Positions 15,852-36,051 of a stretch of 64,000 bases of DNA are shown here, one piece after another. Position 1 is the stretch's first letter, and the number at the start of each line of letters is the position of its first letter. Both the position numbers and the translations under genes were made by a program. The notes below the pieces were generated by a model. The model was given only the letters and a program-made list of their open reading frames with translations. It had not been told where the DNA came from and searched no databases. The DNA is from Myxococcota bacterium (lineage in GTDB: Bacteria > Myxococcota_A > Polyangia > Polyangiales > Sandaracinaceae). The stretch spans positions 64,001 to 128,000 of the forward strand of contig JAYZQJ010000004.1 of NCBI GenBank assembly GCA_036149055.1. Reading direction: 5' to 3'.

Positions 15852-17249
15852 TCAGGCCGCCACGTGGCTTTTCGAGATGCCCTTCTTCTTGAGCTTCTCG
15901 ACCAGGGTCGTCCGGTTCATCTGGAGGATCGAGGCCGCCTGGTTCTTGTTCCAGCCGGTCCGCTCGAGCGCCTGCACGATGAGCGCGTTCTCGAACTGCT
16001 CGACCGCGTCCTTCAGGTCCAGCCCCGCCTCCGGGAGGATCGGGTTGCCGCCACCGTCGGCCGCCGCGGCGCCGCTGGCCTCGCGGATGCGCGCCGGCAC
16101 GTCGTCGAGGGTCAGGGTCTCCCCCTGGGCCAGGACGACCATGCGCTCGACGGTGTGGCGCAGCTGGCGGACGTTCCCGGGCCAGTCGAAGCCCTGGAGG
16201 GCCGCCAGCGCCGCGTCCTCGATGCGGGTGATGTTGCGGTTCCGGCGCCGGCTCGCCTCGGTGATGAAGTGGCCGACGAGGTGGGGGATGTCTCCGGGGC
16301 GCTGCCGGAGCGCGGGCAGCTCGATCCGGATCACGTCGAGCCGGTAGAGGAGGTCCTCCCGGAAGCGGCCCTTCTCGGCCATCTCCTCGACGTCGCGGTG
16401 GGTCGCGGCGACCACCCGGACGTCGACCTTGTGGCTCTTGGACTCGCCGACCGGCCGGATCTCGCCCTCCTGGAGCACCCGGAGGAGCTTCGCCTGGAGC
16501 GAGAGGTCCATCTCGCCGATCTCGTCGAGCAGGAGGGTGCCGCCGTCGGCGACCGCGAAGCGCCCCTTGTGCGCGCTGGTGGCCCCGGTGAAGGCGCCCT
16601 TGGCGTGCCCGAAGAGCTCGCTCTCCATCAGGTTCTCGGGGATCGCGGCGCAGTTCATCGGGACGAAGGCGCCCTTGCGGCGCTCGCTCGCCCGGTGGAT
16701 CGCCTGCGCGACGAGCTCCTTGCCGGTCCCGGTCTCGCCGGTGATGAGCACCGAGCAGTCGGTGTCGGCGACCCGGCGCACGATGTCGAAGACCCGCATC
16801 AGGGTGGGGTCCTCGCCGATGATCTCCGGGCAGTGCTCGGTCCGCCACGCGGCCAGGTCGTCCTCGGTGGCCGGCGGCGCCGCGCCGAGGGAGCGCGCGC
16901 TCTGGACGCGCTCGAGGCTGTTGTCGAGGGCCTCGAGCGAGAAGGGCTTGGTCAGGAAGTCGTCGGCGCCGTGGCGGAGCGCGGAGATCGCGTGGTCCAG
17001 GACCGCCTGGCCGGTCATGACGATCACCGCCGCGCGGCTGGCGTGCACGTGGTCGACCACGCTGAAGCCCTGTCCGTCGGGCAGCATCACGTCGGTGAGG
17101 ACGACGTCGACGTCGGGCTCCGCCTCGAGCACCTCGCGGGCCTCCTTGCAGCTGCCCGCCTCGAGGATCTCCTCGCCACGCCGGCGCAGGTGCCTCGCGA
17201 GGCTGCGCCGGAGCGTCTCTTCGTCTTCGACGATCAGGATTTTCGACAT
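15852..17249 (-). CDS. Sigma54-dependent response regulator, FleQ/FlrA-like candidate flagellar master activator
   Basis: REC (ILIVEDE, TDVMLPDG), GETGTGKE, ESELFGHAKGAFTGA, and C-terminal LPEAGLDLK...NRTTLVEKLKK resembling FleQ/FlrA. ATG at 17249. Confidence 0.85.
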   Translation of the reverse strand: MSKILIVEDEETLRRSLARHLRRRGEEILEAGSCKEAREVLEAEPDVDVVLTDVMLPDGQGFSVVDHVHASRAAVIVMTGQAVLDHAISALRHGADDFLTKPFSLEALDNSLERVQSARSLGAAPPATEDDLAAWRTEHCPEIIGEDPTLMRVFDIVRRVADTDCSVLITGETGTGKELVAQAIHRASERRKGAFVPMNCAAIPENLMESELFGHAKGAFTGATSAHKGRFAVADGGTLLLDEIGEMDLSLQAKLLRVLQEGEIRPVGESKSHKVDVRVVAATHRDVEEMAEKGRFREDLLYRLDVIRIELPALRQRPGDIPHLVGHFITEASRRRNRNITRIEDAALAALQGFDWPGNVRQLRHTVERMVVLAQGETLTLDDVPARIREASGAAAADGGGNPILPEAGLDLKDAVEQFENALIVQALERTGWNKNQAASILQMNRTTLVEKLKKKGISKSHVAA

Positions 17250-17280
17250 CGCGTGGGGCCTCCCGCCTCCATGGATTTCG

Positions 17281-17318
17281 TCCGACACCCCGAACGGCGG
17301 AGGTGTCGGATTTTTGAC
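17281..17318. promoter_or_regulatory. Inverted repeat plus GTC-N8-GAC (FleQ-box-like) site
   Basis: TCCGACACC..GGTGTCGGA (17281-17310) overlaps GTCGGATTTTTGAC (17305-17318). Confidence 0.5.
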
Positions 17319-17379
17319 CCTAACCAGGATCAAAGCTGATTTCCTCAAGCTCGGCCAGCTTTCGACCGTTGACGAGGGC

Positions 17380-18462
17380 ATGAGCCGCGCGACTCTCCCG
17401 CGACCCCTGCTCGGCGACGCCTTCTCCCCGGACGCGGTCATCGAGGTGGAGGCGCTGCTCCGGCGCCAGCTCCGGCCCCACGGCTGGGTGCGCTCCGTCG
17501 AGGTCGCGACCGAGCCCGAGGCGCTGCCCGCGCCGGGCCGCGGCGATCACGCCCGCCTCCGGGTCCCGGTCGAGGCCGAGCGCGTCTGGGCCCAGATCGT
17601 CTGGGAGCCGGGCGACGGAGCCCGGGACGCGCTGGTCCGGCAGTCGGTGGAGCTGGTCGGGGCCCGCATCCGCGAGGAGGCGTGGGCCGGGGAGCAGCTC
17701 GTCCTGCGCGATCGCCTCGCCGCCCTCCGCCAGCGCATGGTCGAGCGCAACCGGATGGCCGCGCTCGGCACGATGGCCGCGAGCGTCGCCCACGACATCC
17801 GCACCCCGCTGACCGTGCTCTTCGCCAACCTCTCCTACCTGGAGGAGGCGCTCGAGGGCCTGCAGACCGACGACTCCGAGGAGCTGCGCTCGGTCCTCGA
17901 CGACAACCGCCTGGCGGTCGAGCTGATCGAGGGGGTCCTCGACTCGATGAAGACCTTCGTCGCCGACGGCGAGGCCGCCGGCCTGGTGCGGGTCGAGCAG
18001 GTGGTCGCCTCGGCGGTGCGCCTGACCCGCTGGCACTTCGGCAACGCCCAGGTGCACGTCGAGCCCCGGGTCGAGGGCGATCCGCTCGCCTGCGGCACCG
18101 TCGGCGAGGTCTGTCAGATCCTCGTCAATCTCCTGGCGAACGCCGCCGAGGCCTCCCCGCGCGGCTCGCTCGTCCGGGTGCTCGCGCGCCGGGCCGGGGA
18201 GATGACCTCCATCTTCGTCGTCGACGAGGGCCCCGGGGTCCCGCGCCGCCACCGCGACGCCATCTTCGAGGCCTTCCACACCACCAAGGCCGCCGGCATG
18301 GGCCTCGGCCTCTCGATCGCGCGCGAGATGGCCCGCCGCCACGGCGGGGAGCTCGCCCTGCTCGACGCCCCGCCCCCCGAGCTCGATCCCGCCCCCGTCG
18401 GCGCCTGCTTCGAGCTCCGCCTCCCCGCTTCCCTCCGCGCCACCCTCTTCCCTCCCGCCTGA
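17380..18462 (+). CDS. Cytoplasmic sensor histidine kinase (FleS/FlgS-like position)
   Basis: AHDIRTPL, QILVNLLANA, DEGPG, FHTTK, GMGLGL. No obvious TM. Divergent from the sigma54 regulator. Confidence 0.85.
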   Translation: MSRATLPRPLLGDAFSPDAVIEVEALLRRQLRPHGWVRSVEVATEPEALPAPGRGDHARLRVPVEAERVWAQIVWEPGDGARDALVRQSVELVGARIREEAWAGEQLVLRDRLAALRQRMVERNRMAALGTMAASVAHDIRTPLTVLFANLSYLEEALEGLQTDDSEELRSVLDDNRLAVELIEGVLDSMKTFVADGEAAGLVRVEQVVASAVRLTRWHFGNAQVHVEPRVEGDPLACGTVGEVCQILVNLLANAAEASPRGSLVRVLARRAGEMTSIFVVDEGPGVPRRHRDAIFEAFHTTKAAGMGLGLSIAREMARRHGGELALLDAPPPELDPAPVGACFELRLPASLRATLFPPA

Positions 18463-19360
18463 TCCCTTCGTGCTCCCTGGCTTCACCGAAGTCAGGGGAG
18501 ACGGGAGAGAGGAGGCGAGGAGGAAGTGTCGCTGCGCGCCACGCGACTCCTTGCGGGGTCTCGGAGGACGGCAATTGCTCTCGCAAAGACGCAAAGCCGC
18601 CAAGGGGGTGGGTGGCGGCGGGGTGGGGGCTGGCCGCCGGGTCTCGGGCTGCGTCCGTCGAACCGGCCGTTCGAAGCGGTGGGCTCGGAGGACGGCAATT
18701 GCTCTCGCAAAGACGCAAAGCCGCAAAGGGGGTGGGTGGCGGCGGGGTGGGGGCTGGCCGCCGGGTGCCGGGCTGGATTGTCGCGTTCGGCCGGCAGGCC
18801 CGCCCAGCTATTCCTCCTCGCCTCCCACCTCCCCTCTCCCCTGCTTTCTGCGACGCCGAAGAGGGTCCTGATCCTCCGTGGTCCGTGGCTTCACCGAAGT
18901 CGGGGGAGACGGGAGAGAGGAGGCGAGGAGGAAGTGTCGCTGCGCGCCACGCGACTCCATGCGGGGTCTCGGAGGACGGCAATTGCTCTCGCAAAGGCGC
19001 AAAGCCGCAAAGGGGGTGGGTGGCGGCGGGGTGGGGGCTGGCCGCGGGGTGCTGGGCTGGATCGTCGCGTTCGGCCGGCAGGCCCGCCTGGCTATTCCTC
19101 CTCGCCTCCCACCTCCCCTCTCCCTGCTTTCTGCGACGCCGAAGAGGGCTCTGATCCTCCGTGGTCCGTGGCTTCACCGAAGTCGGGGGAGACGGGAGAG
19201 AGGAGGCGAGGAGGAAGTGTCGCTGCGCGACACGCGGCGATCGGGCGGCGGGGTGGGGGCTGGCCGCCGGGTGCTGGGCTGGACCGTCGCGTTCGGCCGG
19301 CAGGCCCGCCCAGCTATTCCTCCTCGCCTCCCACCTCCCCTCTCCCCTGCTTTCTGCGAG
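18459..19360. repeat. Mosaic REP/BIME-like tandem repeat (modules A, B, C)
   Basis: Module A starts at 18459/18868/19151. Module B (CTCGGAGGACGGCAATTGCTCTCGCAAAG) at 18560/18684/18968. Module C (CTATTCCTCCTCGCCTCCCACCTCCCC) near 18805/19090/19310. A and C cores are reverse complements. Confidence 0.9.
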
Positions 19361-19396
19361 GCCGATGCTCTCTGCGGGCCGACGGGGAGAAGGGGT

Positions 19397-19410
19397 GTCG
19401 GAGCGTTGGC
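19397..19410. promoter_or_regulatory. Candidate activator box for the flgB operon
   Basis: GTCGGAGCGTTGGC, 100 bp upstream of the -24 GG. It shares GGTGTCGGA with the 17302 site. Confidence 0.45.
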
Positions 19411-19495: not shown

Positions 19496-19511
19496 TGGCA
19501 CGAGGGGTGCA
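19496..19511 (+). promoter_or_regulatory. Sigma54 promoter of the flgB operon
   Basis: TGGCACGAGGGGTGCA, GG-N10-GC. Confidence 0.8.
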
Positions 19512-19524: not shown

Positions 19525-19923
19525 GTGATTCCCATCTTCCAGAGCGTGGCCCTGACCCACCGCGCGCTCGACTATCACCTCGAGCGCCAGAACGTCCTGG
19601 CCTCCAACGTCGCCAACGTCGACACGCCCGGCTTCCGGCCCCTCGAGCTCGTCCGGGAGGACGTGCCGACCGAGGCGCCGGGGACGCTGCGGCTCGAGAC
19701 GACGCACGGGGCCCACGTGGGCCAGTCCGGCGACGCGACCCGCCCCTTCGTGCTCACCGAGTCCGAGGAGCAGGTCGTCAACCCCGGCAACGACGGGAAC
19801 GCCGTCTCGCTCGAGCGCGAGATGAGCAAGGTCGCCGCCAACAACATCCGGTACGAGGGCGCGGTTCGGATCGTCCGCAGCCAGCTCGGCCTCCTTCGCT
19901 ACGCCGCCAACGACGGGCACTGA
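19525..19923 (+). CDS. flgB: Flagellar basal-body rod protein FlgB
   Basis: RQNVLASNVANVDTPGF; DGNAVSLEREM. Confidence 0.92.
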   Translation: MIPIFQSVALTHRALDYHLERQNVLASNVANVDTPGFRPLELVREDVPTEAPGTLRLETTHGAHVGQSGDATRPFVLTESEEQVVNPGNDGNAVSLEREMSKVAANNIRYEGAVRIVRSQLGLLRYAANDGH

Positions 19924-19931: not shown

Positions 19932-20372
19932 ATGAACTTCTTTTCCGCCATGGAGATCGCCGCCAGCGGCCTGGGCGCCCAGCGCACCCGGATGAACGTG
20001 CTCGCCAGCAACCTCGCGAACGCGCGCACCACGCGCACCGAGGACGGCCAGGGCCCGTACCGCCGCATGGACCCCGTGTTCCGGGCCGTCCCGGTCGCCG
20101 ACCGCTTCGAGGAGCTGCGCGGCGACGCGCACGCCGAGAACGCGTTCGTGGTCGAGGTGCCGGAGATCCGGCAGGACGACTCGCCGCCCCAGCGCATCTA
20201 CGAGCCGAGCCACCCGGACGCCGACGAGGACGGATACGTCGAGATGCCGAACGTCAACGTGGTGGAGGAGATGGTCAACATGATCACCGCCTCTCGCGCG
20301 TACGAGTCCGGCGTGACCGTCATGCAGAGCCTCAAGAGCATGGCCAAGAGCGCCATCAGCATCAGCGGCTGA
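19932..20372 (+). CDS. flgC: Flagellar basal-body rod protein FlgC
   Basis: ASGLGAQRTRMNVLASNLANA; YEPSHPDADEDGYVEMPNVNVVEEMVNMI. ATG at 19932. Confidence 0.95.
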   Translation: MNFFSAMEIAASGLGAQRTRMNVLASNLANARTTRTEDGQGPYRRMDPVFRAVPVADRFEELRGDAHAENAFVVEVPEIRQDDSPPQRIYEPSHPDADEDGYVEMPNVNVVEEMVNMITASRAYESGVTVMQSLKSMAKSAISISG

Positions 20373-20382: not shown

Positions 20383-20751
20383 ATGACCGCCCCGATCAGC
20401 AACGACATGACGAGCTTCGCCGCGACGCTCCAGCGCGCCGACGCCACGGTGCAGACGCGCGAGGCGCGGGCGCCGCAGGCCGACTCGCTGCGGATCGGCG
20501 ACGGAACCCAGACCGTCCAGGCCCCCGAGGGCCCGAGCTTCGGGGAGCGCGTGGAGCAGCTCCTCGAGCAGACCAACCAGGTGCAGGTCAACGCCGAGCA
20601 GGCCGCCGAGTCCTACGCGAACGGCACCCGGAACGACATGCACGGGACGATGATCGCGCTCGAGCAGGCCGACATCAGCTTCCGCCTCGTCAGCAACATT
20701 CGCAGTCGCCTCGTCGACGCCTACCGCGAAGTCATGCGGATGGGAGCCTGA
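20383..20751 (+). CDS. fliE: Flagellar hook-basal body protein FliE
   Basis: MHGTMIALEQADISFRLVSNIRSRLVDAYREVMRM. Confidence 0.9.
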   Translation: MTAPISNDMTSFAATLQRADATVQTREARAPQADSLRIGDGTQTVQAPEGPSFGERVEQLLEQTNQVQVNAEQAAESYANGTRNDMHGTMIALEQADISFRLVSNIRSRLVDAYREVMRMGA

Positions 20752-20754
20752 TCG

Positions 20755-22449
20755 ATGGACCAGGTGAAGGAGCGGCTCAAGGCCCTCGAGGAGAAGTGGA
20801 AGGCGCTGAACGCGCGCGTCCGCATCGGCATCCTGGCCGGCGCCGGCGTGCTCGTGGCGGGCGCCATCCTCTTCTTCGCGCACGGCTCGAGCCCCGACTA
20901 CGGGATCCTCTTCTCGAACCTCTCGCAGGAGGACGCGGCCCGGATCGTCGAGCGCCTCCGCGCGATGAACGTGGACTACGAGCTCGCCGAGGGCGGCGGC
21001 ACCATCCTCGTCCCCGACGCGAGCGTGCACGAGACGCGGCTCACCCTGGCCAACGAGGGGCTCCCGAGCGGCGGCGGCGTGGGCTTCGAGCTCTTCGACA
21101 CCCAGCGCTTCGGCGAGAGCGACTTCTCCGAGCAGGTGCAGTTCCGCCGCGCGCTCGAGGGCGAGCTCGCCCGGACCATCCGCCACCTCGCCGGGGTCGA
21201 GAGCGCCCGCGTGCACCTCGTGCTCCCCGAGCGGCGGCTCTTCACCACCGACGAGAGCGAGGCGAGCGCCTCGGTCGCGCTCCACATGAACCCGGGCTGG
21301 CGCCTCCGCGAGGACCAGGTCCAGGGCGTGCAGCACCTCGTCGCCTCGAGCGTGCAGGGGCTCTCGCCCTCGAACGTCACCGTGGTCGACGGCGACGGTC
21401 GCCCCCTCAGCGAGCAGGGCGGCGGCGCGGGCGAGGGCGTCTCGGACGCCGAGGATCTCCGCCGCCAGATCGAGCAGGGCAAGCAGCGCGCGGTGCAGCA
21501 GCTCCTCGACGCCTCGCTCGGGCCGGGCGTCGCCGTCGTGCGGGTCAGCGCCGAGGTCGACATGTCGCGGGTCGAGGATCTCCAGGAGACCTACGACCCC
21601 GACCGCATCGCGACCCGCAGCTTCGAGGTCACCGAGGAGCGCACGGCGGACGCCGAGGGCGACGCGCAGGGCATCCCGGGCGCCGCCTCGAACCTGCCGG
21701 GCGGGCCCGCCGCCGAGGCGACCGCCGGCGAGAGCGCGGCCGGGCGCCGCCACGAGCGCCGCAACTACGAGGTCACCAAGACGGTGCGCCGCCAGGTGCG
21801 CCCGGTCGGCCGGCTCTCGCGCCTCACCGTCGCGGTGGTCGTCGACGGCACCTGGACCGGCGAGGGCGACGGGCGCAGCTACACCGAGCGCGACGCCGAC
21901 GAGCTCGCGCGCATCCGCTCGCTGGTGGCCACCGCCGCCGGCATCAGCGCCGAGCGCGGCGACGAGGTCACGGTCGAGAACGTGCCCTTCGCCGGCTCGC
22001 AGGACGTGCCCGCCGCGCACCCGAGCGACTTCATCGCCGTCTACGAGCCGTGGCTGCCCTACGCGGCCGGCGCGGCGCTCTTCCTGCTGGCCCTGATCGG
22101 CGGCGTCATCCTCTGGCTGCGACGCAAGCGGAAGAAGAAGGAGCGCGAGCAGGAGGAGAAGCTCCGCGAGCTCGAGGCCCGGGCGGCCGGCCAGGAGGTC
22201 GACTCCGACGACCCCGACGCCCTGCCGGCTCCCACCCCGGTCGCCGAGCTCGGCGCGGGCGAGGAGGACGACTTCGAGGGCTACGAGGGCGACGTCGAGG
22301 CGGTGCTCGCCGACTACGAGCAGCTCCGGGTGCTCGCCCTCGAGGTGGCCCGGCGCGACCCCGAGCTGGCGGCCCGCGTGGTGCGCGGCTGGCTCGCCGA
22401 TGACGTGAAGGCGCAGAAGAAGGACGACGCGTCCAAGGAGGCAGCGTGA
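20755..22449 (+). CDS. fliF: Flagellar MS-ring protein FliF
   Basis: Two TMs; LFSNL, GFELFD, RALEGELARTI, ARVHLVLP, NYEVTKT. Confidence 0.95.
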   Translation: MDQVKERLKALEEKWKALNARVRIGILAGAGVLVAGAILFFAHGSSPDYGILFSNLSQEDAARIVERLRAMNVDYELAEGGGTILVPDASVHETRLTLANEGLPSGGGVGFELFDTQRFGESDFSEQVQFRRALEGELARTIRHLAGVESARVHLVLPERRLFTTDESEASASVALHMNPGWRLREDQVQGVQHLVASSVQGLSPSNVTVVDGDGRPLSEQGGGAGEGVSDAEDLRRQIEQGKQRAVQQLLDASLGPGVAVVRVSAEVDMSRVEDLQETYDPDRIATRSFEVTEERTADAEGDAQGIPGAASNLPGGPAAEATAGESAAGRRHERRNYEVTKTVRRQVRPVGRLSRLTVAVVVDGTWTGEGDGRSYTERDADELARIRSLVATAAGISAERGDEVTVENVPFAGSQDVPAAHPSDFIAVYEPWLPYAAGAALFLLALIGGVILWLRRKRKKKEREQEEKLRELEARAAGQEVDSDDPDALPAPTPVAELGAGEEDDFEGYEGDVEAVLADYEQLRVLALEVARRDPELAARVVRGWLADDVKAQKKDDASKEAA

Positions 22450-23525
22450 CCAACGCAGCGGACGTCGAGGCGAGCGCGGACGAGCTGCTGGCCAAGAACG
22501 GGCTGGCCCGGATCAAGGTCGACCGGAAGGCGCTGAAGCGCCTCAGCGGCGCGGAGAAGGCGCTGCTCTTCCTGGTCAGCCTCGACGAGTCGATCGCGAC
22601 CCGCATCCTCGGCCACCTCGGCGACGACGAGGTCAAGCTCCTGCGCGACTCCTCGTCGGCCATGACCGAGGCCCCGCCGAAGGCGATCAAGGCGGTGCAC
22701 CACGAGTTCCTCGAGCGCGTGCGGCAGGGCATGCCGGCGAGCCTCAAGGGCTCGAGCGCCTACCTCCGCCGCCTCGCGGGCAACGCGCTCGGCGAGGGGC
22801 GCGCGTCGGAGCTCTGGAGCGACAAGCCCAAGAGCGAGGGCGCGGCCGCGCTCGCGAAGCTCGAGACCGGCGTGCTCCAGGCGCTGCTCGACGCGGAGCA
22901 GCCGCAGACGGTGGCCATCGTGCTCTCGCAGCTCCCGGCGGCGAAGGCGTCCGAGATCATCGAGAAGATGGAGGCGAGCCGTCGTCAGGACGTCATGCTT
23001 CGCCTCGCGCAGCTCGAGAGCATCCCCGAGGCGGTGTTCCGCGACATCGAGCAGGCCTTCCAGGTGCACGTCGAGGCGCTCGCCGAGGTGCAGCGCCGCG
23101 AGATCCCCGGCAAGAAGTCGGCGGCCGACATCGTCAAGCGCCTGCCGGCCGAGATCGGCGAGGAGCTGCTCGAGGCGCTCCGCAGCGCGAGCCAGGACGC
23201 GGCCGACGCCATCGAGAAGGCGCTCTTCACCTTCGAGGACCTCTGCCGGGTCGACAGCCGCGGCATGCAGCAGCTCCTCAAGGAGGTCGCGACCGACCAG
23301 CTCACCCTCGCCCTCAAGACGGCGAGCGACGAGCTCAAGGAGAAGGTCTTCGGCAACATCTCGAGCCGCGCGGCGGACCTGCTGCACGAGGAGCTCGAGC
23401 TGATGGGCCCGGTCAAGCTCAGCGACGTGGAGGAGGCCCAGCAGGGCATCATCCAGATCGCGCTCGACCTCGAGAAGGACGGCCGGATCGCCATCGCGCG
23501 CGAGGGCGGGGGCGACTATGTCTGA
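22446..23525 (+). CDS. fliG: Flagellar motor switch protein FliG
   Basis: LSGAEKA, EQPQTVAIVL, FTFEDL, NISSRAA, GPVKLSDVEEAQ. Confidence 0.93.
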   Translation: MTNAADVEASADELLAKNGLARIKVDRKALKRLSGAEKALLFLVSLDESIATRILGHLGDDEVKLLRDSSSAMTEAPPKAIKAVHHEFLERVRQGMPASLKGSSAYLRRLAGNALGEGRASELWSDKPKSEGAAALAKLETGVLQALLDAEQPQTVAIVLSQLPAAKASEIIEKMEASRRQDVMLRLAQLESIPEAVFRDIEQAFQVHVEALAEVQRREIPGKKSAADIVKRLPAEIGEELLEALRSASQDAADAIEKALFTFEDLCRVDSRGMQQLLKEVATDQLTLALKTASDELKEKVFGNISSRAADLLHEELELMGPVKLSDVEEAQQGIIQIALDLEKDGRIAIAREGGGDYV

Positions 23526-28093: not shown

Positions 28094-29392
28094 ATGACCA
28101 TCATGAAGTCCCTGAACACCGCCTCCTCGGGCATCCGCAGCCACAGCGAGGCGCTCTCGGTCGTCGGCGACAACATCGCCAACGTGAACACGGTCGGATA
28201 CAAGCGCTCGCGCGCGAACTTCCAGGACATGCTCGGGCGCAGCATCGCCGGCTCGAGCGCGATGCCGCAGGCCGGCGCCGGCAGCCGCGTGGGCAGCATC
28301 CAGCAGATGTGGGCGCAGGGCGCCTTGCTCACCACCGACTCGCCGACCGACCTCGCGCTCAACGGCTCCGGGTTCTTCGTCGTCAGCGGCAACGTCGGCG
28401 GCGTCGACGGCAGCTTCTACACGCGGGCCGGCCAGTACACGCTCGACAGCGAGGGTTACCTCGTCAACCAGGACGGCCTGCGCCTGCAGGGCTACCCGGC
28501 CGACGACACCGGCGCGCTGAGCGGCACGCTCGGAGACCTGCAGGTCGAGCAGGGCACCATCGGGGCCAACGCCACCACGAGCGTCGACGTCGGCGCGAAC
28601 CTCGACGCCGAGACCGCGGTGCGGACCGACGCCTGGGATCCCACCGACCCGGCCGGCACGAGTGACTTCTCCTCGAACGTCACCGTGTACGACTCGCTCG
28701 GCAACGCGCACGAGGTGACCGTCTACTATCGCAAGACCGGCGCGAACAGCTGGGAGTGGCACGCGATGGCGGACGGCGCCGAAGTCACCGGCGGCACCCC
28801 GGGCACGCCCTTCGAGGGCGCGAGCGGCACCCTGACCTTCACCACCGACGGCCAGCTCGACACCGAGACCACCAGCGCCTCGAGCTGGGACTTCGTCGAC
28901 GCGACCCCCGGCCAGGCGGTCACCTTCGACTTCGGCGACTCGATCACCACCGACTCGGGCACCGGCATGAGCGGGACCACCCAGTACGCCTCGCCCTCCA
29001 CCAACACCGGCATCAGCCAGGACGGCTACGGCGCCGGCGAGGTCGCGGGCATCTCGATCGGGCAGGACGGAACCATCGAGGGGGTGTTCACCAACGGCCA
29101 GCGCCGGGTCCTCGGGCAGGTCGCGGTCGCGGACTTCGCGAGCGTCGACGGCCTCGAGCGGGCCGGGCAGGGCCTCTGGGTCGAGACCCAGGCCAGCGGC
29201 GAGGCGGTGGTCGGCGCGGCCGGCACCGGCGGGCGCGGCGCGGTGGTGGCGGGGGCCCTCGAGGGCAGCAACGTCGACCTCGCGCGCGAGTTCGTCGACC
29301 TCATCGCCTACCAGCGCGGGTTCTCCGCCAACAGCCGCATCGTCAGCACCGCCGACGAGATGTACACGGAGCTGGTCAACCTGAAGCGGTGA
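28094..29392 (+). CDS. flgE: Flagellar hook protein FlgE
   Basis: GDNIANVNTVGYK, DLALNGSGFF, YTRAG, VYDSLG, LEGSNVDLAREF. Confidence 0.95.
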   Translation: MTIMKSLNTASSGIRSHSEALSVVGDNIANVNTVGYKRSRANFQDMLGRSIAGSSAMPQAGAGSRVGSIQQMWAQGALLTTDSPTDLALNGSGFFVVSGNVGGVDGSFYTRAGQYTLDSEGYLVNQDGLRLQGYPADDTGALSGTLGDLQVEQGTIGANATTSVDVGANLDAETAVRTDAWDPTDPAGTSDFSSNVTVYDSLGNAHEVTVYYRKTGANSWEWHAMADGAEVTGGTPGTPFEGASGTLTFTTDGQLDTETTSASSWDFVDATPGQAVTFDFGDSITTDSGTGMSGTTQYASPSTNTGISQDGYGAGEVAGISIGQDGTIEGVFTNGQRRVLGQVAVADFASVDGLERAGQGLWVETQASGEAVVGAAGTGGRGAVVAGALEGSNVDLAREFVDLIAYQRGFSANSRIVSTADEMYTELVNLKR

Positions 29393-29448: not shown

Positions 29449-29979
29449 GTGCGGCGGAGAAGAGCAGGGTTCACGCTGGTGGAGCTGATGTCGGTGGTCA
29501 CGATCGTCGGCATCCTCGCCGCGCTCGCCATCCCGAGCTTCGTCAGCTACTCGCGGCGGGCTCGGACCAGCGAGGCGACGACGATGCTCGGCGACCTCTA
29601 CCACCACGCGGCGAGCTACTACGTCGCCGAGTACCCGCCCGGGCGCTCGGCGCCGCAGACCTTCTCGGGCTGCGTGGTGGACTCGGCCGGCCCGCTGCCC
29701 GCCGTCCCCCGCGGCGTCGCCGCCTACCCGGACTGGGAGTCGGATCCCAGCTTCAGCGGGCTCGGCTTCGCGAGCGGCGGGGCGCTCCGCTACGGCTACG
29801 AGATCGTCTCGGTCGGAGGCTGCCGGCACGGGGCCGGCGAGGCCCTCTACAGCTTCCGCGCGATCGGCGACCTCGACGGCGACGGCGCGACCAGCCTCTT
29901 CGAGGTCGCGGCCGGCTCGAACTCGGACAACGTGCTGATGCGCACGCCCGGGCACTACGTCGAGTCGGCGCTCGAGTAG
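29449..29979 (+). CDS. Type IV pilin (PilA-like)
   Basis: Class III signal RRRRAG|FTLVELMSVVTIVGILAALAIP; C-terminal AIGDLDGDG. Confidence 0.88.
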   Translation: MRRRRAGFTLVELMSVVTIVGILAALAIPSFVSYSRRARTSEATTMLGDLYHHAASYYVAEYPPGRSAPQTFSGCVVDSAGPLPAVPRGVAAYPDWESDPSFSGLGFASGGALRYGYEIVSVGGCRHGAGEALYSFRAIGDLDGDGATSLFEVAAGSNSDNVLMRTPGHYVESALE

Positions 29980-30914
29980 CGGTCCTCGAGGGCCCAGGCG
30001 AAGAGCCCGCACATCACGAAGCCGTGCGCGTTCGCGTAGCCGTGCGTGCGCAGCATCCACTGGATGCCGATCAGGCGGTGCCCGGTCGCCTCGCCCCACG
30101 CGTAGGCCAGCGCGAGCGGCATCGAGAGCAGCAGGGAGGCGCCGCTGACGAGCAGCAGCACCCGCGAGACGGCGCGGCGAGGCCGCCGCCAGACCCACCC
30201 GAGGGTCAGCCCGGCGACGAGGAGCAGCGCGCCGGCGAGCAGCGCCGTGCCGGCCAGCGCGAGCCACGGCGACGAGGTGATGCCGATCGCGACGATCGGC
30301 TGCGCGGCCACCGCGGCCAGCGCCGCGCCCAGGGCCAGCCGGCGGCGTCGCCCTTCGAGCGCGAGGCCGGCGCGGACCGCGAGGATCGGGGCGGCCACCG
30401 CGGCGAAGTGGAAGTGGACGCCGGTAAGCGCGACGATCAGCGGGTCGAAGTCGAGGGGGCGCGCGCCGACCCGAGACAGCAGCAGCCACCCCGCGCCCAC
30501 CGGCAGGTAGGCGAGCGCGAGCCCGGTCGCGAGCGTGTCCAGCCGCCGCAGCCCGCCCGCGAGCACCCGGCCGAGCCCGAGGAGCGCCACCAGGATGGCG
30601 AAGCTGACCCAGGCCGCCGCCCACGCGCCCGCCTCGAGCGAGACCGGCAGGGAGAGGGCGACCACCGCGGCCGCGCCGCACAGGGGCTGGGCGATCGCGG
30701 CGAGGTCGACGAGCCGGCTCTCGCGGGCGAGGGGCGCGACCGCGAGCGCCAGCGGCGCGACGCCGAGCACGGCGAGGGCGAGGACCCGGCTGATCGCGTC
30801 GGCGCCGACGAACCGGAGCCCGATGGAGAGCGCGACCCCCAGCCCGGCGCTGACCAGGAGGAGAGTGCGGGTGCGACGACCGGCGAGCTTCGGCACCCGC
30901 GGAGAATGCGTCAT
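29955..30914 (-). CDS. YndJ-like membrane protein
   Basis: Multi-TM; LTGVHFHFA and WMLRTHGYANAHGF motifs. Start uncertain. Confidence 0.75.
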   Translation of the reverse strand: MTHSPRVPKLAGRRTRTLLLVSAGLGVALSIGLRFVGADAISRVLALAVLGVAPLALAVAPLARESRLVDLAAIAQPLCGAAAVVALSLPVSLEAGAWAAAWVSFAILVALLGLGRVLAGGLRRLDTLATGLALAYLPVGAGWLLLSRVGARPLDFDPLIVALTGVHFHFAAVAAPILAVRAGLALEGRRRRLALGAALAAVAAQPIVAIGITSSPWLALAGTALLAGALLLVAGLTLGWVWRRPRRAVSRVLLLVSGASLLLSMPLALAYAWGEATGHRLIGIQWMLRTHGYANAHGFVMCGLFAWALEDRYSSADST

Positions 30915-30924: not shown

Positions 30925-31893
30925 ATGCACTGGATGGATCTGGAGCCCGCCCACGCGCGCCTGGCGCTGGGGGCGATGCGGGCGGTGGCGGGGGCGGACG
31001 GTGAGCTCGCGGAGGCGGAGCGCGGCCTGCTCGAGGCCGCGGGGCGGCTGCTCGAGATCGACCCCGAGGTGCCCCCGCTGACCCCGGCGGCGCTGGCGAG
31101 CGCGGGGCTGGCCGGCCGGGACGCCGAGCGGGTGGTGCAGGCGGGCATCCTCGCGGCCCTGCTCGACGGCCGGATCGACCCGGCCGAGGTGGAGGTGGTG
31201 CGCGCCCTGGCGTCGGCGGCCGGGGTCGACGAGCCCCGGGTCCACAACCTCGCCCAGATCGCGAAGGGGAGGGTGCGGCTCGCCTGGCTCGACCTGGCCC
31301 GGCGCTCGTTCGCCCGGGACGTCTTCGTCGACGCGCTGAAGCGCGAGGGGCCCCGCGGGGTCTGGAAGATCGTGGGCCCCATGCTCGGCCGGGCCGTCGA
31401 TTCGGCCCTCGCGGCCCGCTACATCGCGCTCGGCGAGCTGCCCGAGGGCACCCTCGGTCACGCCTACTTCCGCTTCGTCTACGAGAACGGGCTCGGCTTC
31501 CCGGGTGAGAAGGGCGCGGTGCCCGAGTCGGGCGTCTGGCACGACGTCAGCCACGTGCTCGGCGGGTATGGCGTCGCGCCCCGGGAGGAGGTCGAGGTGG
31601 TGTCCTTCATCGCCGGCTTCACCCGCGAGGACCCGTTCTTCTGGGTCTTCACCATCACGCTGCAGTTCCACCTCGGGATGCGTGTCTCGCCGTACTCGCA
31701 GGGGGGCGTCGGGCTCGTGGACCCGGCCCGCATGCTCGGCGCCTTCGCGCGGGGCGCGGCGATGACCGAGGACCTCTCGGTGGACGGCTGGGATCCGTGG
31801 CCCTGGTTCCCCGAGCAGCTCGAGGCGGTCCGGGCGCGCTTCGGCGTGCGTCAAGCGCCTGACCTCGGGCCCGCCGGAGCGCCGGAGGGCTGA
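30925..31893 (+). CDS. TerB-like N-terminal / Coq4-like C-terminal protein
   Basis: AVAGADG and LLDGRIDPAE (TerB-like); LPEGTLGHAY...HDVSHVLGGY...E (Coq4-like HDxxH). Confidence 0.65.
   Translation: MHWMDLEPAHARLALGAMRAVAGADGELAEAERGLLEAAGRLLEIDPEVPPLTPAALASAGLAGRDAERVVQAGILAALLDGRIDPAEVEVVRALASAAGVDEPRVHNLAQIAKGRVRLAWLDLARRSFARDVFVDALKREGPRGVWKIVGPMLGRAVDSALAARYIALGELPEGTLGHAYFRFVYENGLGFPGEKGAVPESGVWHDVSHVLGGYGVAPREEVEVVSFIAGFTREDPFFWVFTITLQFHLGMRVSPYSQGGVGLVDPARMLGAFARGAAMTEDLSVDGWDPWPWFPEQLEAVRARFGVRQAPDLGPAGAPEG
31850..31863. promoter_or_regulatory. Candidate activator box for the fliL operon
   Basis: GTCAAGCGCCTGAC (GTC-N8-GAC), 99 bp upstream of the -24 GG. Confidence 0.5.
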
Positions 31894-31947: not shown

Positions 31948-31963
31948 TGGCACGGTCGGTGCT
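31948..31963 (+). promoter_or_regulatory. Sigma54 promoter of the fliL operon
   Basis: TGGCACGGTCGGTGCT, GG-N10-GC, followed by CTAGCTC as in the flgB promoter. Confidence 0.8.
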
Positions 31964-31978: not shown

Positions 31979-32473
31979 ATGGCCGACGACAAGCAAGACA
32001 CCGAGGAGCAGCCCGCGCCGAGCGGCGGCGGGAAGAGCACCCTCATCATCGTGCTCGTGGTGACCAACCTGCTCGTGGTGGCGGGCGCCGCCGGCGCGGT
32101 GGTCATGACGATGGGCAGCCAGCCGGCCGCGACCGCGGAGGCGGCCGAGCCCACGGGGAGCGGCCGCGAGGTCGGCCCCCTGCTCGAGCTCTCGGCGCTG
32201 GTGGTCAACCTCGAGGACCCCAACGGGACGCACTACCTGCGGGCGGGCTTCCAGATGGAGATCCGCGACGCCGAGCGGCAGGCCGAGGTGGAGACCCGCC
32301 TCGTCCCGCTCCGCTCCGCCGTCCTCCTGCACCTCAGCGGCAAGTCGATGGACGAGGTCGTCGGGCAGGAGAACCGCGCCGCCATCCTCGAGGAGCTGAC
32401 CGAGCTCGCCAACGAGCAGATCGGCGGCGACCTCGTGCGCGCCGTCTACTTCACGGAGTTCGTCGTCCAGTAA
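31979..32473 (+). CDS. fliL: Flagellar basal body protein FliL
   Basis: N-terminal TM; LVVNL, HYLRA, VYFTEFVVQ. Confidence 0.9.
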   Translation: MADDKQDTEEQPAPSGGGKSTLIIVLVVTNLLVVAGAAGAVVMTMGSQPAATAEAAEPTGSGREVGPLLELSALVVNLEDPNGTHYLRAGFQMEIRDAERQAEVETRLVPLRSAVLLHLSGKSMDEVVGQENRAAILEELTELANEQIGGDLVRAVYFTEFVVQ

Positions 32474-32488
32474 GGGCGGAGCCGCGCG

Positions 32489-33472
32489 ATGTTCGAAGAG
32501 CCGTCCATGGAAGAGCCCCTGCTCAGCGACGAGGAGACCAGCGCGCTCCTCGACGCGATGCGGGAGGAGGAGACGCGAGGGGAGGTCGAAGCCAAGAAGA
32601 CCGACCTCGGCTCCCCCGAGGGCCCGATGCGCGACGCGCTGGGCCGGGCGGACGCGGCGGCCATCCAGCTCGGGCGGGCGGCGCGCACGCAGCTCCTCAA
32701 GCAGACCGCGCGCGGCATGGACGTCGAGCTGCTCCCCGCCGAGATCGTGCCGCGGGACGTGCTCACCTCCTCGATCGACCCGCACGCGCTGCTGTTCACG
32801 GTGCGCTCCCGCGGCGAGGCGCTCGGCGTGGTCGCGCTCGACTCGAACCTCGGCCGCTCGGTGCTCGAGCGCTGCATGGGCGCGCCGGAGTCGAGCGGTG
32901 AGGCGGCGGCGCCCGGCGGCGCGCTGAGCGAGCTCGACCGACGCATCCTCCGCCCCTTCCCGGCGGCGGTGGTCGAGGCGCTCGGAGAGACCTTCCTCCG
33001 CGGCCGGCCCCTCACCCTCGAGGACCACGACGACGCCGACGACGGCGGGGTGCGCTTCGAGCCGATGCTCCGCCTGGGCCTGCGGTTCTCGAACGGCGGC
33101 CAGCGCGCGGGCGAGCTGCTCCTCGCCCTGACCGCGGCCGCGGTGACGAGCGCGTGCCCCAAGCAGCAGGCGGCCCGCGAGGCGCTGCAGAAGAAGAAGG
33201 AGGAGGCGCCCCGCGCGAAGGACCTCCTCGTCGAGAAGATCGCCGGCGCCGAGGTGGACCTGATCGCGGTCCTCGGGCGCGCCCCCTCGAGCGTGCGCGA
33301 CCTGCTCGCGCTCCAGACGGGCGACGTGCTGCGGCTCAGCGGCGCGCCCGGTGACCCCGTCGCGCTCTGCATCGAGGACGTGGTCCTCGGGCACGGCAAC
33401 CCGGTCGTCCACAAGGGCGACCTCGCGATCGAAGTGACCTCCAGAGAATCGAAGGGACGGCAGACGTCATGA
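32489..33472 (+). CDS. fliM: Flagellar motor switch protein FliM (divergent)
   Basis: N-terminal LSDEETSALL (LSQxEIDALL-like), LSELDRRI, C-terminal SpoA (LLALQTGDVLRL). Confidence 0.8.
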   Translation: MFEEPSMEEPLLSDEETSALLDAMREEETRGEVEAKKTDLGSPEGPMRDALGRADAAAIQLGRAARTQLLKQTARGMDVELLPAEIVPRDVLTSSIDPHALLFTVRSRGEALGVVALDSNLGRSVLERCMGAPESSGEAAAPGGALSELDRRILRPFPAAVVEALGETFLRGRPLTLEDHDDADDGGVRFEPMLRLGLRFSNGGQRAGELLLALTAAAVTSACPKQQAAREALQKKKEEAPRAKDLLVEKIAGAEVDLIAVLGRAPSSVRDLLALQTGDVLRLSGAPGDPVALCIEDVVLGHGNPVVHKGDLAIEVTSRESKGRQTS

Positions 33473-33828
33473 GTGAGCTCAGCATGGAATCTCTCGGCTT
33501 CGGCGCGAGCTCGCCCGAAGAGGCCCCCGCCGCGGCGCCGACCCCCGAGCGGTCGCACGACCTCGACCGGATCCTCGAGATCCCGCTCGACATCCACGTC
33601 GAGCTCGGGCGTCGCAAGATGCGCATCCACGAGCTGCTCGAGCTGGACGTCGGCTCGGTCCTGGAGCTCGGCACCCCGGCGGGCACCCCGCTCAGCATCT
33701 ACGCGAACAAGGTGCTCGTCGCTCAGGGCGAGGCCGTCATCGTCGGCGAGCGCTACGGCGTCCGCATCACCGACATCGTCCCCGCGAGCGAGCGCGTCCG
33801 CCGCCTCGGCGGGAAGGAGGGCTTCTGA
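33469..33828 (+). CDS. fliN: Flagellar motor switch protein FliN
   Basis: ILEIPLDIHVELG...GEAVIVGERYGVRITDI. Confidence 0.93.
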   Translation: MSELSMESLGFGASSPEEAPAAAPTPERSHDLDRILEIPLDIHVELGRRKMRIHELLELDVGSVLELGTPAGTPLSIYANKVLVAQGEAVIVGERYGVRITDIVPASERVRRLGGKEGF

Positions 33829-34949
33829 TGAAGCAGCGAATCGCCACCCTCGCCCTCGCCCTGCTCGCCGTGCCGAGCGCCGCGTCGGCGAACACCATCA
33901 CCGACGCGCGCGCCGACCTCGGCGAGGAGACCTACGAGCTCCGCGTGCAGGCCGAGGCGGACCTCGGAGAGCCGCGCATCCGCACCTCGCCCGGCTTCGT
34001 CCGGGTGTGGTTCCCGGGCATGAACAGCGTGAGCCTCGACCGGGACGGCGACGGCGCGGCCATCCGCTTCGTCCGCATCCGCCCCGGCTACGAGGACACC
34101 GCGGTGACCATCATCCGGCTCGGCGACATGCGTCGCCTCTCCGCCGACGAGGTCGTGGTGACCCGCGACGGCCCGGTGGCCCGGATCTCCATCCCGCGCG
34201 CCGCCTTGCCCCAGGTCGCGGCGATCGCGGCGGCCGAGACCGCGGCCCCCGCGCCGGTCGAGGCCCGCCAGGCGGAGCCCGCGTCGGCCGAGGCGTCCCC
34301 GGAGCCGGCCGCCGAGCCCGAGGCCGTCGAGGCGGAGGAGGAGGCGTCCGCGCCGCCGCTCGCGCTCACCCGGTCGAGCGACGCCCAGCCGCTGCCCGCG
34401 TCGGACGGTCCGAGCACGACCGTCATCCTGCTCGTCCTGACCCTGCTGCTCGGCGGCGGCTACCTGGCGCTCCGCACGGTGCAGAAGAAGATCGGCAAGG
34501 CCGGCCCGCGCCGCGACATCGACATCATCGCCCAGAAGCGGATCGGCGGGAAGCACCAGCTCCTCGTGGTCCGGGCGCTCGGCGAGGATCATCTGCTGGC
34601 GGTCCACGCCGGCCGCACCGAGAAGATCGCCTCGATGCCGGCGCCCCGCGGCGGCGACGAGGGCGGCGGCGAGCTCTCCGAGGAGAGCGACCTGCTCCCC
34701 TTCCTGCGCCTCGGCGCGGGGGAGGACGAGGAGCGCCCGCAGACGCTGCACCGCGCGTCGAGCCGCAAGAAGGTCGAGGATCGCCCGCGCTTCGGCGCCG
34801 AGCTGATGAAGCTGGTCGGAGACCGCGGCCGCGCCGACAGCGTGAGCCTCAGCGGCGGCCTCGGCGGAGGCCTCGGCGGTGGGGCGGCGTCGGCGCCCAG
34901 CGAGGCCGTCGCCGGCCTGCTCCGCCTCCGCGAGAAGCTCGGGCGCTGA
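33828..34949 (+). CDS. fliO: FliO with N-terminal extracytoplasmic extension
   Basis: Between fliN and fliP; signal peptide, TM, then IDIIAQKRIGGKHQLLVVRALGEDHLLAV. Confidence 0.75.
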   Translation: MKQRIATLALALLAVPSAASANTITDARADLGEETYELRVQAEADLGEPRIRTSPGFVRVWFPGMNSVSLDRDGDGAAIRFVRIRPGYEDTAVTIIRLGDMRRLSADEVVVTRDGPVARISIPRAALPQVAAIAAAETAAPAPVEARQAEPASAEASPEPAAEPEAVEAEEEASAPPLALTRSSDAQPLPASDGPSTTVILLVLTLLLGGGYLALRTVQKKIGKAGPRRDIDIIAQKRIGGKHQLLVVRALGEDHLLAVHAGRTEKIASMPAPRGGDEGGGELSEESDLLPFLRLGAGEDEERPQTLHRASSRKKVEDRPRFGAELMKLVGDRGRADSVSLSGGLGGGLGGGAASAPSEAVAGLLRLREKLGR

Positions 34950-34966
34950 GCCAGAGGAAAGACGTC

Positions 34967-35782
34967 ATGAAGAGCCCGCGTCACAGCGTCCGCGCCGCCT
35001 GGGTGAGCTTCGCGCTCGCCCTCGGGGTCTGCGGGGCCACCCTCGCGCCGGCCTTCGTGGCGCCCGCGATCGCGTCCGCGCAGAGCCAGGACGACGCCAC
35101 GGTGACCCCGCCGGGGAGCGTGACCGTCACCCTCCCGGATCTCGAGGAGCCCGACCAGATGGTGCCGGCGCTCAAGATCCTGGTGCTGATGACGGTGCTG
35201 AGCCTGGCGCCGGCCATCCTCATCTCGATGACGAGCTTCACCCGCATCGTCATCGTGCTCAGCTTCGTGCGGCAGGCGGTCGGCACCCAGAACGTGCCCC
35301 CGATGCAGGTGATCCTCTCGCTCTCGCTCCTGCTGACCGCGGTGGTGATGGCGCCGATCTTCCATCGCGTTCAGGTGGAGGCGCTCGACCCCTACGAGGC
35401 CGAGCAGATCGACGGCGACGAGGCCTGGGAGCGCGGCTCCGACATCATGCGCGGCTTCCTCATCCGGCAGACCCGCGAGGACGACCTGCTGCTCTTCTAC
35501 GAGCTCAGCCAGACCGACCGCCCCGCCGACCTGAGCGACGTCTCGCTCCACCTCCTGGTGCCCGCCTTCATGATCAGCGAGCTGCGCACCGGCTTCGAGA
35601 TGGGCTTCCTGCTCTTCCTGCCGTTCGTGCTCGTCGACCTGATCACCGGCAGCGTCCTGACCTCGATGGGCATGGTGATGCTCCCGCCGACGATGGTCTC
35701 GACCCCGCTCAAGATCTTGCTCTTCGTCCTGGTGGACGGATGGGCCCTCCTCACCCGCTCACTCGTGGCCTCGTTCGCATGA
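34967..35782 (+). CDS. fliP: Flagellar export protein FliP
   Basis: MTSFTRIVIVLS, PAFMISELRTGFEMGF, MGMVMLPP, PLKILLFVLVDGW. Confidence 0.95.
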   Translation: MKSPRHSVRAAWVSFALALGVCGATLAPAFVAPAIASAQSQDDATVTPPGSVTVTLPDLEEPDQMVPALKILVLMTVLSLAPAILISMTSFTRIVIVLSFVRQAVGTQNVPPMQVILSLSLLLTAVVMAPIFHRVQVEALDPYEAEQIDGDEAWERGSDIMRGFLIRQTREDDLLLFYELSQTDRPADLSDVSLHLLVPAFMISELRTGFEMGFLLFLPFVLVDLITGSVLTSMGMVMLPPTMVSTPLKILLFVLVDGWALLTRSLVASFA

Positions 35783-36051
35783 CCCCCTCCATCGGGCTCG
35801 ACTGGATCCGCGAGACGATGTGGACCGCGGTGGTCGCCGGCGCGCCGGTGATCCTGACGGTGGCCATCATCGGGCTCGCGCTCGCCATCCTGCAGGCCGC
35901 CACGCAGGTCAACGACGCGGCGGTCCCGTTCGCGGCCAAGGCCATCGGCGTGTTCGTCGCGCTGACGATGACCGGGGCGTGGATGCTCGGGCAGATGACC
36001 GACTTCGCGGAGAGCGCCTTCGAGGCGATGGCCCGCGTCACCGGCGGTTGA
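35779..36051 (+). CDS. fliQ: Flagellar export protein FliQ
   Basis: IGLALAILQAATQVND...FAAK...GAWML; ATGA overlap with fliP. Confidence 0.9.
   Translation: MTPSIGLDWIRETMWTAVVAGAPVILTVAIIGLALAILQAATQVNDAAVPFAAKAIGVFVALTMTGAWMLGQMTDFAESAFEAMARVTGG

Follow-up and report, generated by a model that had tools for sequence, protein, structure and literature searches.

The stretch of DNA analyzed here, which we call the window, covers 64,000 nucleotides of a draft Myxococcota genome (GCA_036149055.1; contig JAYZQJ010000004.1, positions 64,001 to 128,000), and a cluster of flagellar genes was found in it at 19525-36051. The draft contained 9,885,391 bases in 289 contigs, with an estimated completeness of 96.06% and an estimated contamination of 1.41%. 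The G+C content of the window ranged from 70 to 81%, and shadow open reading frames (ORFs) therefore crowded every frame. We picked the true frames by their third-position G+C content (GC3) and then confirmed them with Pfam and NCBIfam scans. According to these scans, 17 flagellar ORFs, all on the + strand and without internal stops or frameshifts, were arranged in two blocks, the first (19525-29392) running from flgB to flgE and the second (31979-36051) running from fliL to fliQ. They are listed below, with bit scores given against the cut-off of the respective family where one is quoted.

19525..19923, + strand: flgB, proximal rod (TIGR01396 FlgB, 73.1 bits against 59.05; Pfam Flg_bb_rod)
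19932..20372, + strand: flgC, proximal rod (TIGR01395 FlgC, 168.1 bits against 102.1)
20383..20751, + strand: fliE (Pfam FliE, 1.2e-21; TIGR00205, 73.1 bits against 30)
20755..22449, + strand: fliF, MS ring (TIGR00206, 303.6 bits against 129.75; Pfam YscJ_FliF, YscJ_FliF_C)
22446..23525, + strand: fliG, rotor/switch (Pfam FliG_N, FliG_M, FliG_C; TIGR00207, 222.6 bits, slightly below the cut-off of 226.7)
23547..24332, + strand: fliH (Pfam FliH, 5.9e-8, 33.1 bits against 24.1)
24329..25642, + strand: fliI, export ATPase (TIGR01026 FliI/YscN, 559.9 bits against 379.5; FliI_clade1, 580.5 bits, below 619.1)
25639..26073, + strand: fliJ (Pfam FliJ, 30.9 bits against 28.4)
26070..27248, + strand: FliK-like hook-length protein with an Ala/Glu/Pro-rich middle (Pfam Flg_hook, 29.6 bits, slightly below the cut-off of 29.8)
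27254..28069, + strand: flgD, hook cap (Pfam FlgD, FlgD_ig, FLgD_tudor)
28094..29392, + strand: flgE, hook (Pfam FlgE_D2, 4.5e-26, Flg_bb_rod, Flg_bbr_C; TIGR03506, 330.6 bits against 70.25)
31979..32473, + strand: fliL (Pfam FliL, 4.6e-19)
32489..33472, + strand: fliM-like switch protein with a divergent middle domain (Pfam FliMN_C only, 1e-17; TIGR01397, 62.6 bits against 219.6)
33469..33828, + strand: fliN (Pfam FliMN_C, 8.8e-24; TIGR02480, 83.3 bits against 84.05)
33828..34949, + strand: fliO (Pfam FliO, 22.9 bits, barely passing the cut-off of 22)
34967..35782, + strand: fliP (TIGR01103 fliP, 253.1 bits against 217.45)
35779..36051, + strand: fliQ, the last flagellar gene of the contig (Pfam Bac_export_3, 8.4e-20)

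An earlier reading of the sequence alone (the original prediction) had described 17 uninterrupted and often translationally coupled flagellar ORFs. All 17 were intact, and 7 of the 15 same-strand flagellar junctions showed overlaps of 1 to 4 nt with the start codons chosen; the block itself, however, was broken by three non-flagellar genes between flgE and fliL. The codon style had also been described as matching that of the flanks, and GC3 was indeed 0.93 to 0.99 inside the flagellar cluster and in the flanks alike. A further frame at 36239-38096 was dismissed as coding, being the wrong frame and having no family match; downstream of fliQ (36051 onward) we found a hybrid histidine kinase, not fliR.

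The NCBIfam equivalog cut-offs were passed by FlgB, FlgC, FliE, and FliF, and a subfamily cut-off was passed by FlgE. Residues 1 to 237 of the FliM-like protein had no Pfam match at an E value of 0.5, and the recognizable part was the C-terminal FliMN_C region. The position of this gene was kept in a genome of the same genus (G001), where the product was 90% identical, and its N terminus (LLSDEETSALL) presumably resembles the CheY-P-binding peptide. The FliK-like protein had no NCBIfam match, and its conservation in relatives was limited to the C-terminal part. FliO carried an N-terminal extension of about 190 residues (33828-34400) behind a signal-peptide-like start. Some Myxococcota FliO proteins contain AMIN or LysM domains (PMC12248157). 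We looked for such a domain in the N-terminal 191 residues of FliO, and neither it nor any other convincing Pfam match was found at an E value of 0.5.

The remaining parts of a flagellum, apart from FlgJ (rod cap/muramidase), were searched for in the rest of the genome and were found on four other contigs. C259 carried fliR, flhB, flhA, flhF, flhG, fliA, flgF, and flgG; C183 carried fliD, fliS, a FliT-like gene, and two genes for flagellins that have both helical domains; C132 carried flgA, flgH, flgI, flgM, flgN, flgK, flgL, fliW, and csrA; and C281 carried a PilZ protein gene, motA, and a motB with a plug. Three Flagellin_N matches were obtained in total, two of them with a Flagellin_C domain; the third was read as FlgL because it was placed after flgK. 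The fliR gene was parted from fliQ and headed the flhB-flhA block at a contig end (L005 on C259, 16498-17955); its open frame had 485 residues, with the family match limited to residues 242 to 472. Two neighbors of these genes were also recorded: three tandem DUF7668 genes lay downstream of flgG on C259 (L005, 5501-7773, - strand), and a single T2SSE-type ATPase gene adjoined csrA-fliW on C132.

When the contigs were considered together, the following substructures were represented. For the rod and hook, FlgB, FlgC, FlgF, FlgG, FlgE, FlgD, and FliE were detected; for the filament, flagellin with N- and C-terminal helical domains, FliD, FlgK, and FlgL; for torque, MotA, plug-bearing MotB, FliG with its N, M, and C domains, and FliL; for the bushing in the outer membrane and peptidoglycan, FlgH and FlgI with the chaperone FlgA; and for the export apparatus, FlhA, FlhB, FliP, FliQ, FliR, FliO (marginal), and FliH/I/J. 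Thus, every protein for which the original prediction had proposed a genome search (flagellin, hook-associated proteins, stators, FlhA/B, FliR, and FlgH/I) was found. Its distinction of a flagellum from an injectisome also held, and by the parts found the system counts as a flagellum. The block in the window would supply the rod, MS ring, C ring, export apparatus, hook, and FliL of the machine, while the other four contigs would supply the FliR/FlhB/FlhA gate, the distal rod, the L/P rings, the hook-filament junction, and two flagellins, as well as the cap, the chaperones, the MotAB stator, FlhF/FlhG, and FliA/FlgM.

We then considered how these genes may be controlled. Two regulatory genes and two promoter-like motifs lay in or beside the cluster, as follows.

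15852..17441, - strand: NtrC-type response regulator/sigma54 activator, REC + AAA+ with GAFTGA + HTH_8 (Pfam Sigma54_activat, 4.4e-73, Response_reg, HTH_8)
about 17380..18462, + strand: soluble histidine kinase (Pfam HATPase_c, 6.1e-18; HisKA, 2.8e-8)
19496..19511, + strand: sigma54-type -24/-12 motif TGGCAC-N5-GTGCA, right before flgB (pattern match)
31948..31963, + strand: sigma54-type -24/-12 motif TGGCAC-N5-GTGCT, right before fliL (pattern match)

The kinase and regulator genes were divergently transcribed. The true start of the activator is likely near 17249 (MSKILIVEDE...). The activator reached no NCBIfam equivalog cut-off (NtrC, 421 bits against 558.6; FlgR, 325 against 750; FlbD, 323 against 750), and it contained both the receiver Asp (VVLTDVMLPDG) and GAFTGA. 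A homologue of it adjoined flgB in three other genomes (G011, G029, and G286). The kinase appeared to be soluble, with a mean hydropathy of at most 1.44 in every 19-residue stretch; its H-box His was intact (AHDIRTPL), and it was 80% identical to the copy at the same place in G001. Since the H-box His and the receiver Asp were both present, the kinase and the activator look like a working two-component system.

The pattern TGGCAC-N5-NTGC[AT] had 58 sites on both strands of the 9.9 Mb, a count of raw consensus matches taken without a shuffled-sequence expectation, and four of these sites directly preceded flgB, fliL, fliD, and flgA. The motifs of flgB and fliL ended 13 to 15 nt ahead of the start codons and shared a trailing CTAGCTC. 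The upstream regions of late genes had a TCAAG...CCGA motif in common. Its sigma28-type form, TCAAG-N14-17-CCGA[AT][TA], occurred at six sites genome-wide, three of which immediately preceded flgM, the second flagellin gene, and motA (C132, 4945, - strand; C183, 12785, + strand; C281, 1630, + strand), and the first flagellin gene had a one-base variant of it. The Escherichia coli-type sigma28 consensus, [TC]AAA-N14-16-GCCGA[TA]A, was also tried; it gave two matches, none near flagellar genes. Upstream of the C259 flagellar genes, the motif scans showed neither a sigma54- nor a sigma28-type motif. The sigma54 control put forward in the original prediction is supported by the GAFTGA activator beside the cluster, by an rpoN gene elsewhere in the draft, and by the -24/-12 motifs that precede flgB and fliL, and the genes would form a sigma54-dependent flagellar regulon.

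Hierarchies combining sigma54, a two-component system, and sigma28 are known from polar flagellates, namely FlgS/FlgR in Campylobacter, FlrB/FlrC in Vibrio, and FleS/FleR in Pseudomonas. Similarly, a soluble kinase and an NtrC-type activator lay beside the rod and hook genes here, -24/-12 motifs preceded the basal-body/hook operons, and FliA/FlgM and FlhF/FlhG were present, together with sigma28 motifs before a flagellin gene and motA. The present activator differed in scoring below the FlgR, FlbD, and NtrC equivalog cut-offs, and the sigma54 dependence is a prediction. In a proposed two-tier scheme, the soluble histidine kinase would phosphorylate the adjoining activator, and the phosphorylated activator would then open the sigma54 promoters ahead of flgB, fliL, flgA, and fliD. 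Upon completion of the hook-basal body, FliA (sigma28) would be freed from FlgM to drive the flagellin genes, flgM, and motAB. The presence of FlhF/FlhG suggests a polar flagellum. Altogether, the window very probably carries the core block of a regulon, complete and functional, from which a marine member of Sandaracinaceae builds a rotary flagellum for swimming, and swimming is the likely function, as judged from the gene set.

The identity of the host was examined through FliG. A scan of one genome per prokaryote species returned 38 confirmed FliG loci, with titles pointing to Sandaracinaceae or Sandaracinus (9 loci), Polyangia or Polyangiales (4), Myxococcota (3), Deltaproteobacteria (5), the Bdellovibrionota kind (16), and Chlamydiales (1). 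The seven nearest hits included L013 to L017 (four Sandaracinaceae and one Polyangia), which were 73 to 80% identical to the window FliG, and L018 (Sandaracinus) at 56%; the 16 Bdellovibrionota-type loci were at 32 to 35%, except for the short partial L050 (61% over 89 residues). A FliG tree was built with 40 rows, comprising the window, G001, G029, G367, and the confirmed loci without two partial ones (36 of 38). The window paired with G001 in a starred seven-row clade, within a 13-row clade (93/86) of nine Sandaracinaceae or Sandaracinus rows, one Polyangia row, one Deltaproteobacteria row, the window, and G001. This larger clade was separate from Bdellovibrionota and adjoined rows of Polyangiales and Myxococcota. 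The rows of this tree were picked by shared peptide words, other phyla are few in it, and its long branches were flagged. The myxobacterial host that the original prediction had suspected is thus borne out: the nearest FliG loci and the same-family genomes carry Sandaracinaceae, Polyangia, or Myxococcota labels, and the FliG loci, the FliG tree, and the same-family genomes indicate that the host is a marine member of Sandaracinaceae (Myxococcota, Polyangiales).

Next, we asked how widespread the trait is, counting a hook gene wherever the FlgE_D2 domain was found above its cut-off. Of 41 relatives, 15 had a hook gene. So did 13 of the 32 genomes of the family, in 8 of its 12 genera, and, in an even sample of the phylum, 159 of 401 genomes; for the high-quality genomes of this sample the figure was 141 of 341, and for its genera it was 122 of 255. 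A FliG protein query hit 161 of the same 401 genomes. The trait is not rare, contrary to what the original prediction had implied. Some families had no hook gene in the genomes covered (0 of 29 in one, 0 of 18 in another). In the genus with a Sandaracinus-titled record, two closed genomes and two drafts had neither hook nor flagellin genes, and one draft had both. The proportions in the family and in the phylum sample point to flagella as a common trait of uncultured relatives.

Such patchiness, down to 1 of 5 genomes in genus g3, would be expected if the cluster had been acquired recently from another phylum, and beyond the nearest families FliG was no closer to the window than the Bdellovibrionota proteins were. 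We nevertheless consider a recent horizontal acquisition improbable. GC3 of the cluster equaled that of its flanks. Gene order in G001 was identical, down to the three inserted genes, and in two genomes from other families of the order (G029 and G286) flgE led straight to fliL, with the sigma54 activator kept beside flgB. The identity of FliG fell from 93% within the genus to 75% in the family, 33 to 54% in the order, 33 to 38% in the class, and 26 to 37% in the phylum. For comparison, an RpoB segment was 98% identical in G001, 91% in G004, 80% in G286, 75% in G029, and 64% in G367. FlgE and FliI identities ranked as RpoB did in the four comparable genomes (G001, G286, G029, and G367), and FliG did so in five genomes, save for one swap between the two order-level genomes. 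The FliG tree followed family and order labels, and a hook gene occurred in 122 of the 255 sampled genera of the phylum. The ratio of nonsynonymous to synonymous substitution rates (dN/dS, by the NG86 method) against G001 was 0.025 to 0.42 in all 16 genes of the test set (which excluded the regulator, the kinase, fliH, fliK, fliO, and the YndJ-like gene). Gene order, the FliG tree, and these ratios are consistent with vertical inheritance and purifying selection. Most likely, the cluster has been passed down vertically in Polyangiales, and several lineages have lost it, among them the closed genomes of the Sandaracinus-record genus.

Next to swimming, the original prediction had offered a repurposed machine derived from a flagellum. 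That such a machine serves secretion or adhesion here, and not swimming, is a still less probable explanation. Myxococcus has non-flagellar type III systems, and those of M. xanthus share a homologous export core with the present system, with homologues of FliP/Q/R, FlhA/B, FliI, FliN, and FliO (PMC12248157). The divergent middle domain of FliM and the prepilin-like gene inside the cluster could also be read in this direction. Unlike the M. xanthus systems, however, the present one had the parts that define a flagellum, from rod, hook, and junction to filament and cap, along with the stator, the L/P rings, FliL, and FliG. The repurposed-machine reading was left unsupported because flagellins, FliD, FlgK/L, MotA/B, and FlgH/I were all present, and FliL and a three-domain FliG completed the motility-specific parts. 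In addition, sigma28 motifs preceded a flagellin gene and motA.

To see where this DNA occurs, the flgB-flgE stretch (9.9 kb; window 19500-29400) was compared with public sequencing runs. It was present in whole or in part in 20 of the 24 runs listed, from 10 studies, and 18 of them had at least half of the sampled words. These runs were seawater metagenomes, invertebrate-gut metagenomes, and runs labeled with coded organisms, with one being a possible source of the window DNA. Near-identical DNA (85 to 99% of the sampled words) was found in 14 DNA runs, two of them labeled with other organisms, and six RNA libraries had 23 to 82% of the words. The bacterium or close strains of it appear, from these matches, to be widespread in marine samples.

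Contigs from RNA libraries were then compared over window 16200-36150. Those of X15, X17, and X18, from three studies, matched at 95% or more over 19558-26090, 26765-30036, and 31991-35565, and thus over most of the two flagellar blocks; one contig had 6,533 nt (19558 to 26090), and a single contig covered flgD, flgE, and the prepilin-like gene. The mean word depth was low in the repeat region and over the inserted genes at 30186-31517 (X15, 1.67 and 0.45; X18, 0 and 0), with the DNA run X2 being flat. We set this dip aside as a sign of true RNA or of separate transcription units, as uncovered parts of contig data prove nothing. The RNA contigs of X15 and X17 both began at 19558, where the X2 DNA contig continued, and one of X18 began at about 31973, at the transcript start predicted from the fliL motif; as contigs cannot show transcript ends, these shared starts were taken as weak hints only. 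That the cluster is an intact yet silent relic heading for loss is highly improbable. Close relatives have lost the cluster, and the flagellum here is known from sequence; on the other side, the 17 genes had neither stops nor frameshifts, the dN/dS values given above were low in every gene tested, and contigs of three RNA libraries matched the genes.

The least probable explanation, a binning or assembly artefact bringing in flagellar contigs from another organism, could draw on the 289-contig draft, its estimated contamination, and the spread of the flagellar genes over five contigs, but the core cluster sat inside a 143.8-kb contig (C4) between typical two-component and Ser/Thr-kinase genes, contigs of the independent DNA run X2 crossed the regulator, kinase, and fliQ-downstream junctions (though no single contig spanned the cluster), the hook gene also occurred in the congeneric G001 and 11 further family genomes, and the same sigma54 and sigma28 motif types linked four of the five contigs. 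The check for chimerism that had been advised came out in favor of a native cluster, with the G+C content at 68 to 78% in all 289 contigs, synteny with G001, and X2 contigs across the outer junctions.

Several points weigh against a functional swimming flagellum of vertical descent. The flagellum is known from genes and RNA-library contigs, and FlgJ was outside the gene search. The names of FliM, FliK, and FliO depend on weak or partial family matches. The RNA evidence consists of assembled contigs, which do not show level, strand, or ends; DNA is possible in RNA libraries, and the comparison had no silent control stretch. The promoters are consensus matches without mapped transcript starts, and the predicted starts would fall 3 to 6 nt before the start codons, so that either the flgB and fliL mRNAs have almost no leader or the starts have been put in the wrong place. 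The case for vertical descent is limited by the word-based selection of FliG loci, in which Bdellovibrionota is the only well-sampled outgroup, and by the FliG identity being flat near 30 to 38% beyond the family. Lastly, synonymous rates from the NG86 method may be biased at a GC3 near 0.96.

One precedent for a flagellated myxobacterium comes from Anaeromyxobacter, a genus of the class Myxococcia, whereas the present genome belongs to Polyangia. Anaeromyxobacter dehalogenans 2CP-C has a 55.7-kb flagellar cluster, swimming was reported for strain K, and a flagellated common ancestor has been proposed (Thomas et al. 2008, PMC2330069). The near-complete set of 2CP-C, including motA, motB, and fliC, resembles that found here. 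The arrangement differs, being one cluster with embedded chemotaxis genes in 2CP-C and at least five contigs, with fliR apart from fliQ, in the present genome. Moreover, fliJ, flgN, fliT, flgA, flgJ, and fliK are listed as missing in the report on A. dehalogenans (PMC2330069), whereas FliJ, FlgN, a FliT-like protein, FlgA, and a FliK-like protein were detected here. Persicimonas caeni YN101T (Bradymonadales) has flagella by electron microscopy and flagellar genes, and it also glides (PMC7188933); it is now placed in Myxococcota (PMC11509652). It shares with the present genome the flagellar genes of a Myxococcota member and differs in being an isolate of the class Bradymonadia with a phenotype, where we had sequence and RNA-library contigs. 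Flagellar assembly genes have further been mentioned in uncultured Myxococcota metagenome-assembled genomes (MAGs) (bioRxiv 10.1101/2021.07.06.451402), in line with the guess in the original prediction that such reports might exist, and expression of flagellum genes has been reported for marine Myxococcota and Bdellovibrionota MAGs (PMC11937823). Our literature search, which did not cover the supplementary tables of PMC11937823, found no paper on flagella specifically in Sandaracinaceae or Polyangiales, nor on their prevalence across the phylum.

Reviews still call myxobacteria non-flagellated (e.g., PMC6060248 and PMC10196010), and the original prediction had started from the same premise; for the group as a whole it is not supported, in view of Anaeromyxobacter (PMC2330069) and P. 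caeni (PMC7188933). With these relatives in print since 2008 and 2020, the point that the original prediction had set as its own refutation, that flagellated relatives are already well described, largely holds, and the surprise that it claimed is not supported. It is a well-preserved further example of the known flagella in Myxococcota and no new kind of machine. What it adds is a clean, complete, and apparently expressed flagellar regulon for Sandaracinaceae. The commonness of flagella bears on the dispersal and hunting of marine myxobacteria, and a concrete gene set with promoter motifs is now available for testing should the genus be cultured. A broader proposal, for which we see the arguments as evenly balanced, is that the ancestor of Myxococcota already swam with flagella and that the trait is still widespread, retained by about 4 of 10 species-level lineages, including many marine Sandaracinaceae; the textbook picture without flagella would then reflect the cultured lineages, and this marine lineage would alternate swimming with surface motility, its flagellar genes being expressed in the sea.

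The remaining features in or beside the cluster were non-flagellar.

29449..29979, + strand: prepilin-like gene with a G|FTLVE N-terminal methylation motif (Pfam N_methyl, 7.7e-8; TIGR02532, 27.5 bits against 16.3)
29955..30860, - strand: YndJ-like membrane protein (Pfam YndJ, 3.4e-51)
about 30925..31893, + strand: TerB/DUF533-like protein (Pfam TerB, 1.1e-7)
18465..19365, no strand: non-coding repeat stretch of about 0.9 kb between the kinase gene and flgB (repeat families D1-D3, inverted pairs I1-I9)

All three inserted genes (29449-31893) were kept in G001, and two of them were found in G002, within a larger insert; none was found in G029 or G286. The prepilin-like gene was 79% identical in G001, at the same place, with a dN/dS of 0.27. 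The YndJ-like gene also lay between flgE and fliL in G001 (73% identity) and G002 (50%), and the TerB-like gene was 82% identical in G001 and 65% in G002, with a dN/dS of 0.28. An ACCCA-loop RNA after the hook gene was looked for as well and not found: no 160-nt stretch of the window had three or more copies of ACCCA, and only two copies lay between flgE and fliL. The starts of the flagellin genes and flgM were ATGGCC, ATGGCA, and ATGAAG, not ATGGGT.

The repeat stretch consisted of three partly tandem units with 47-nt inverted arms. Its modules gave 269 blastn high-scoring segment pairs across 110 contigs of the genome, and the repeats at 18465-19365 are a dispersed element family resembling miniature inverted-repeat transposable elements (MITE) or repetitive extragenic palindromes (REP).

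Two further observations were made in the neighborhood. Just upstream of the flagellar regulator, at 11792-15775 (- strand), a protein of 1327 residues combined a CheB methylesterase, a CheR methyltransferase, PAS domains, a histidine kinase, and a receiver. A second TerB/DUF533-like match lay in a candidate frame at 39624-40928 (- strand), 8 kb from the first and overlapping the frames 39705-40343 (+ strand) and 40178-41137 (- strand).

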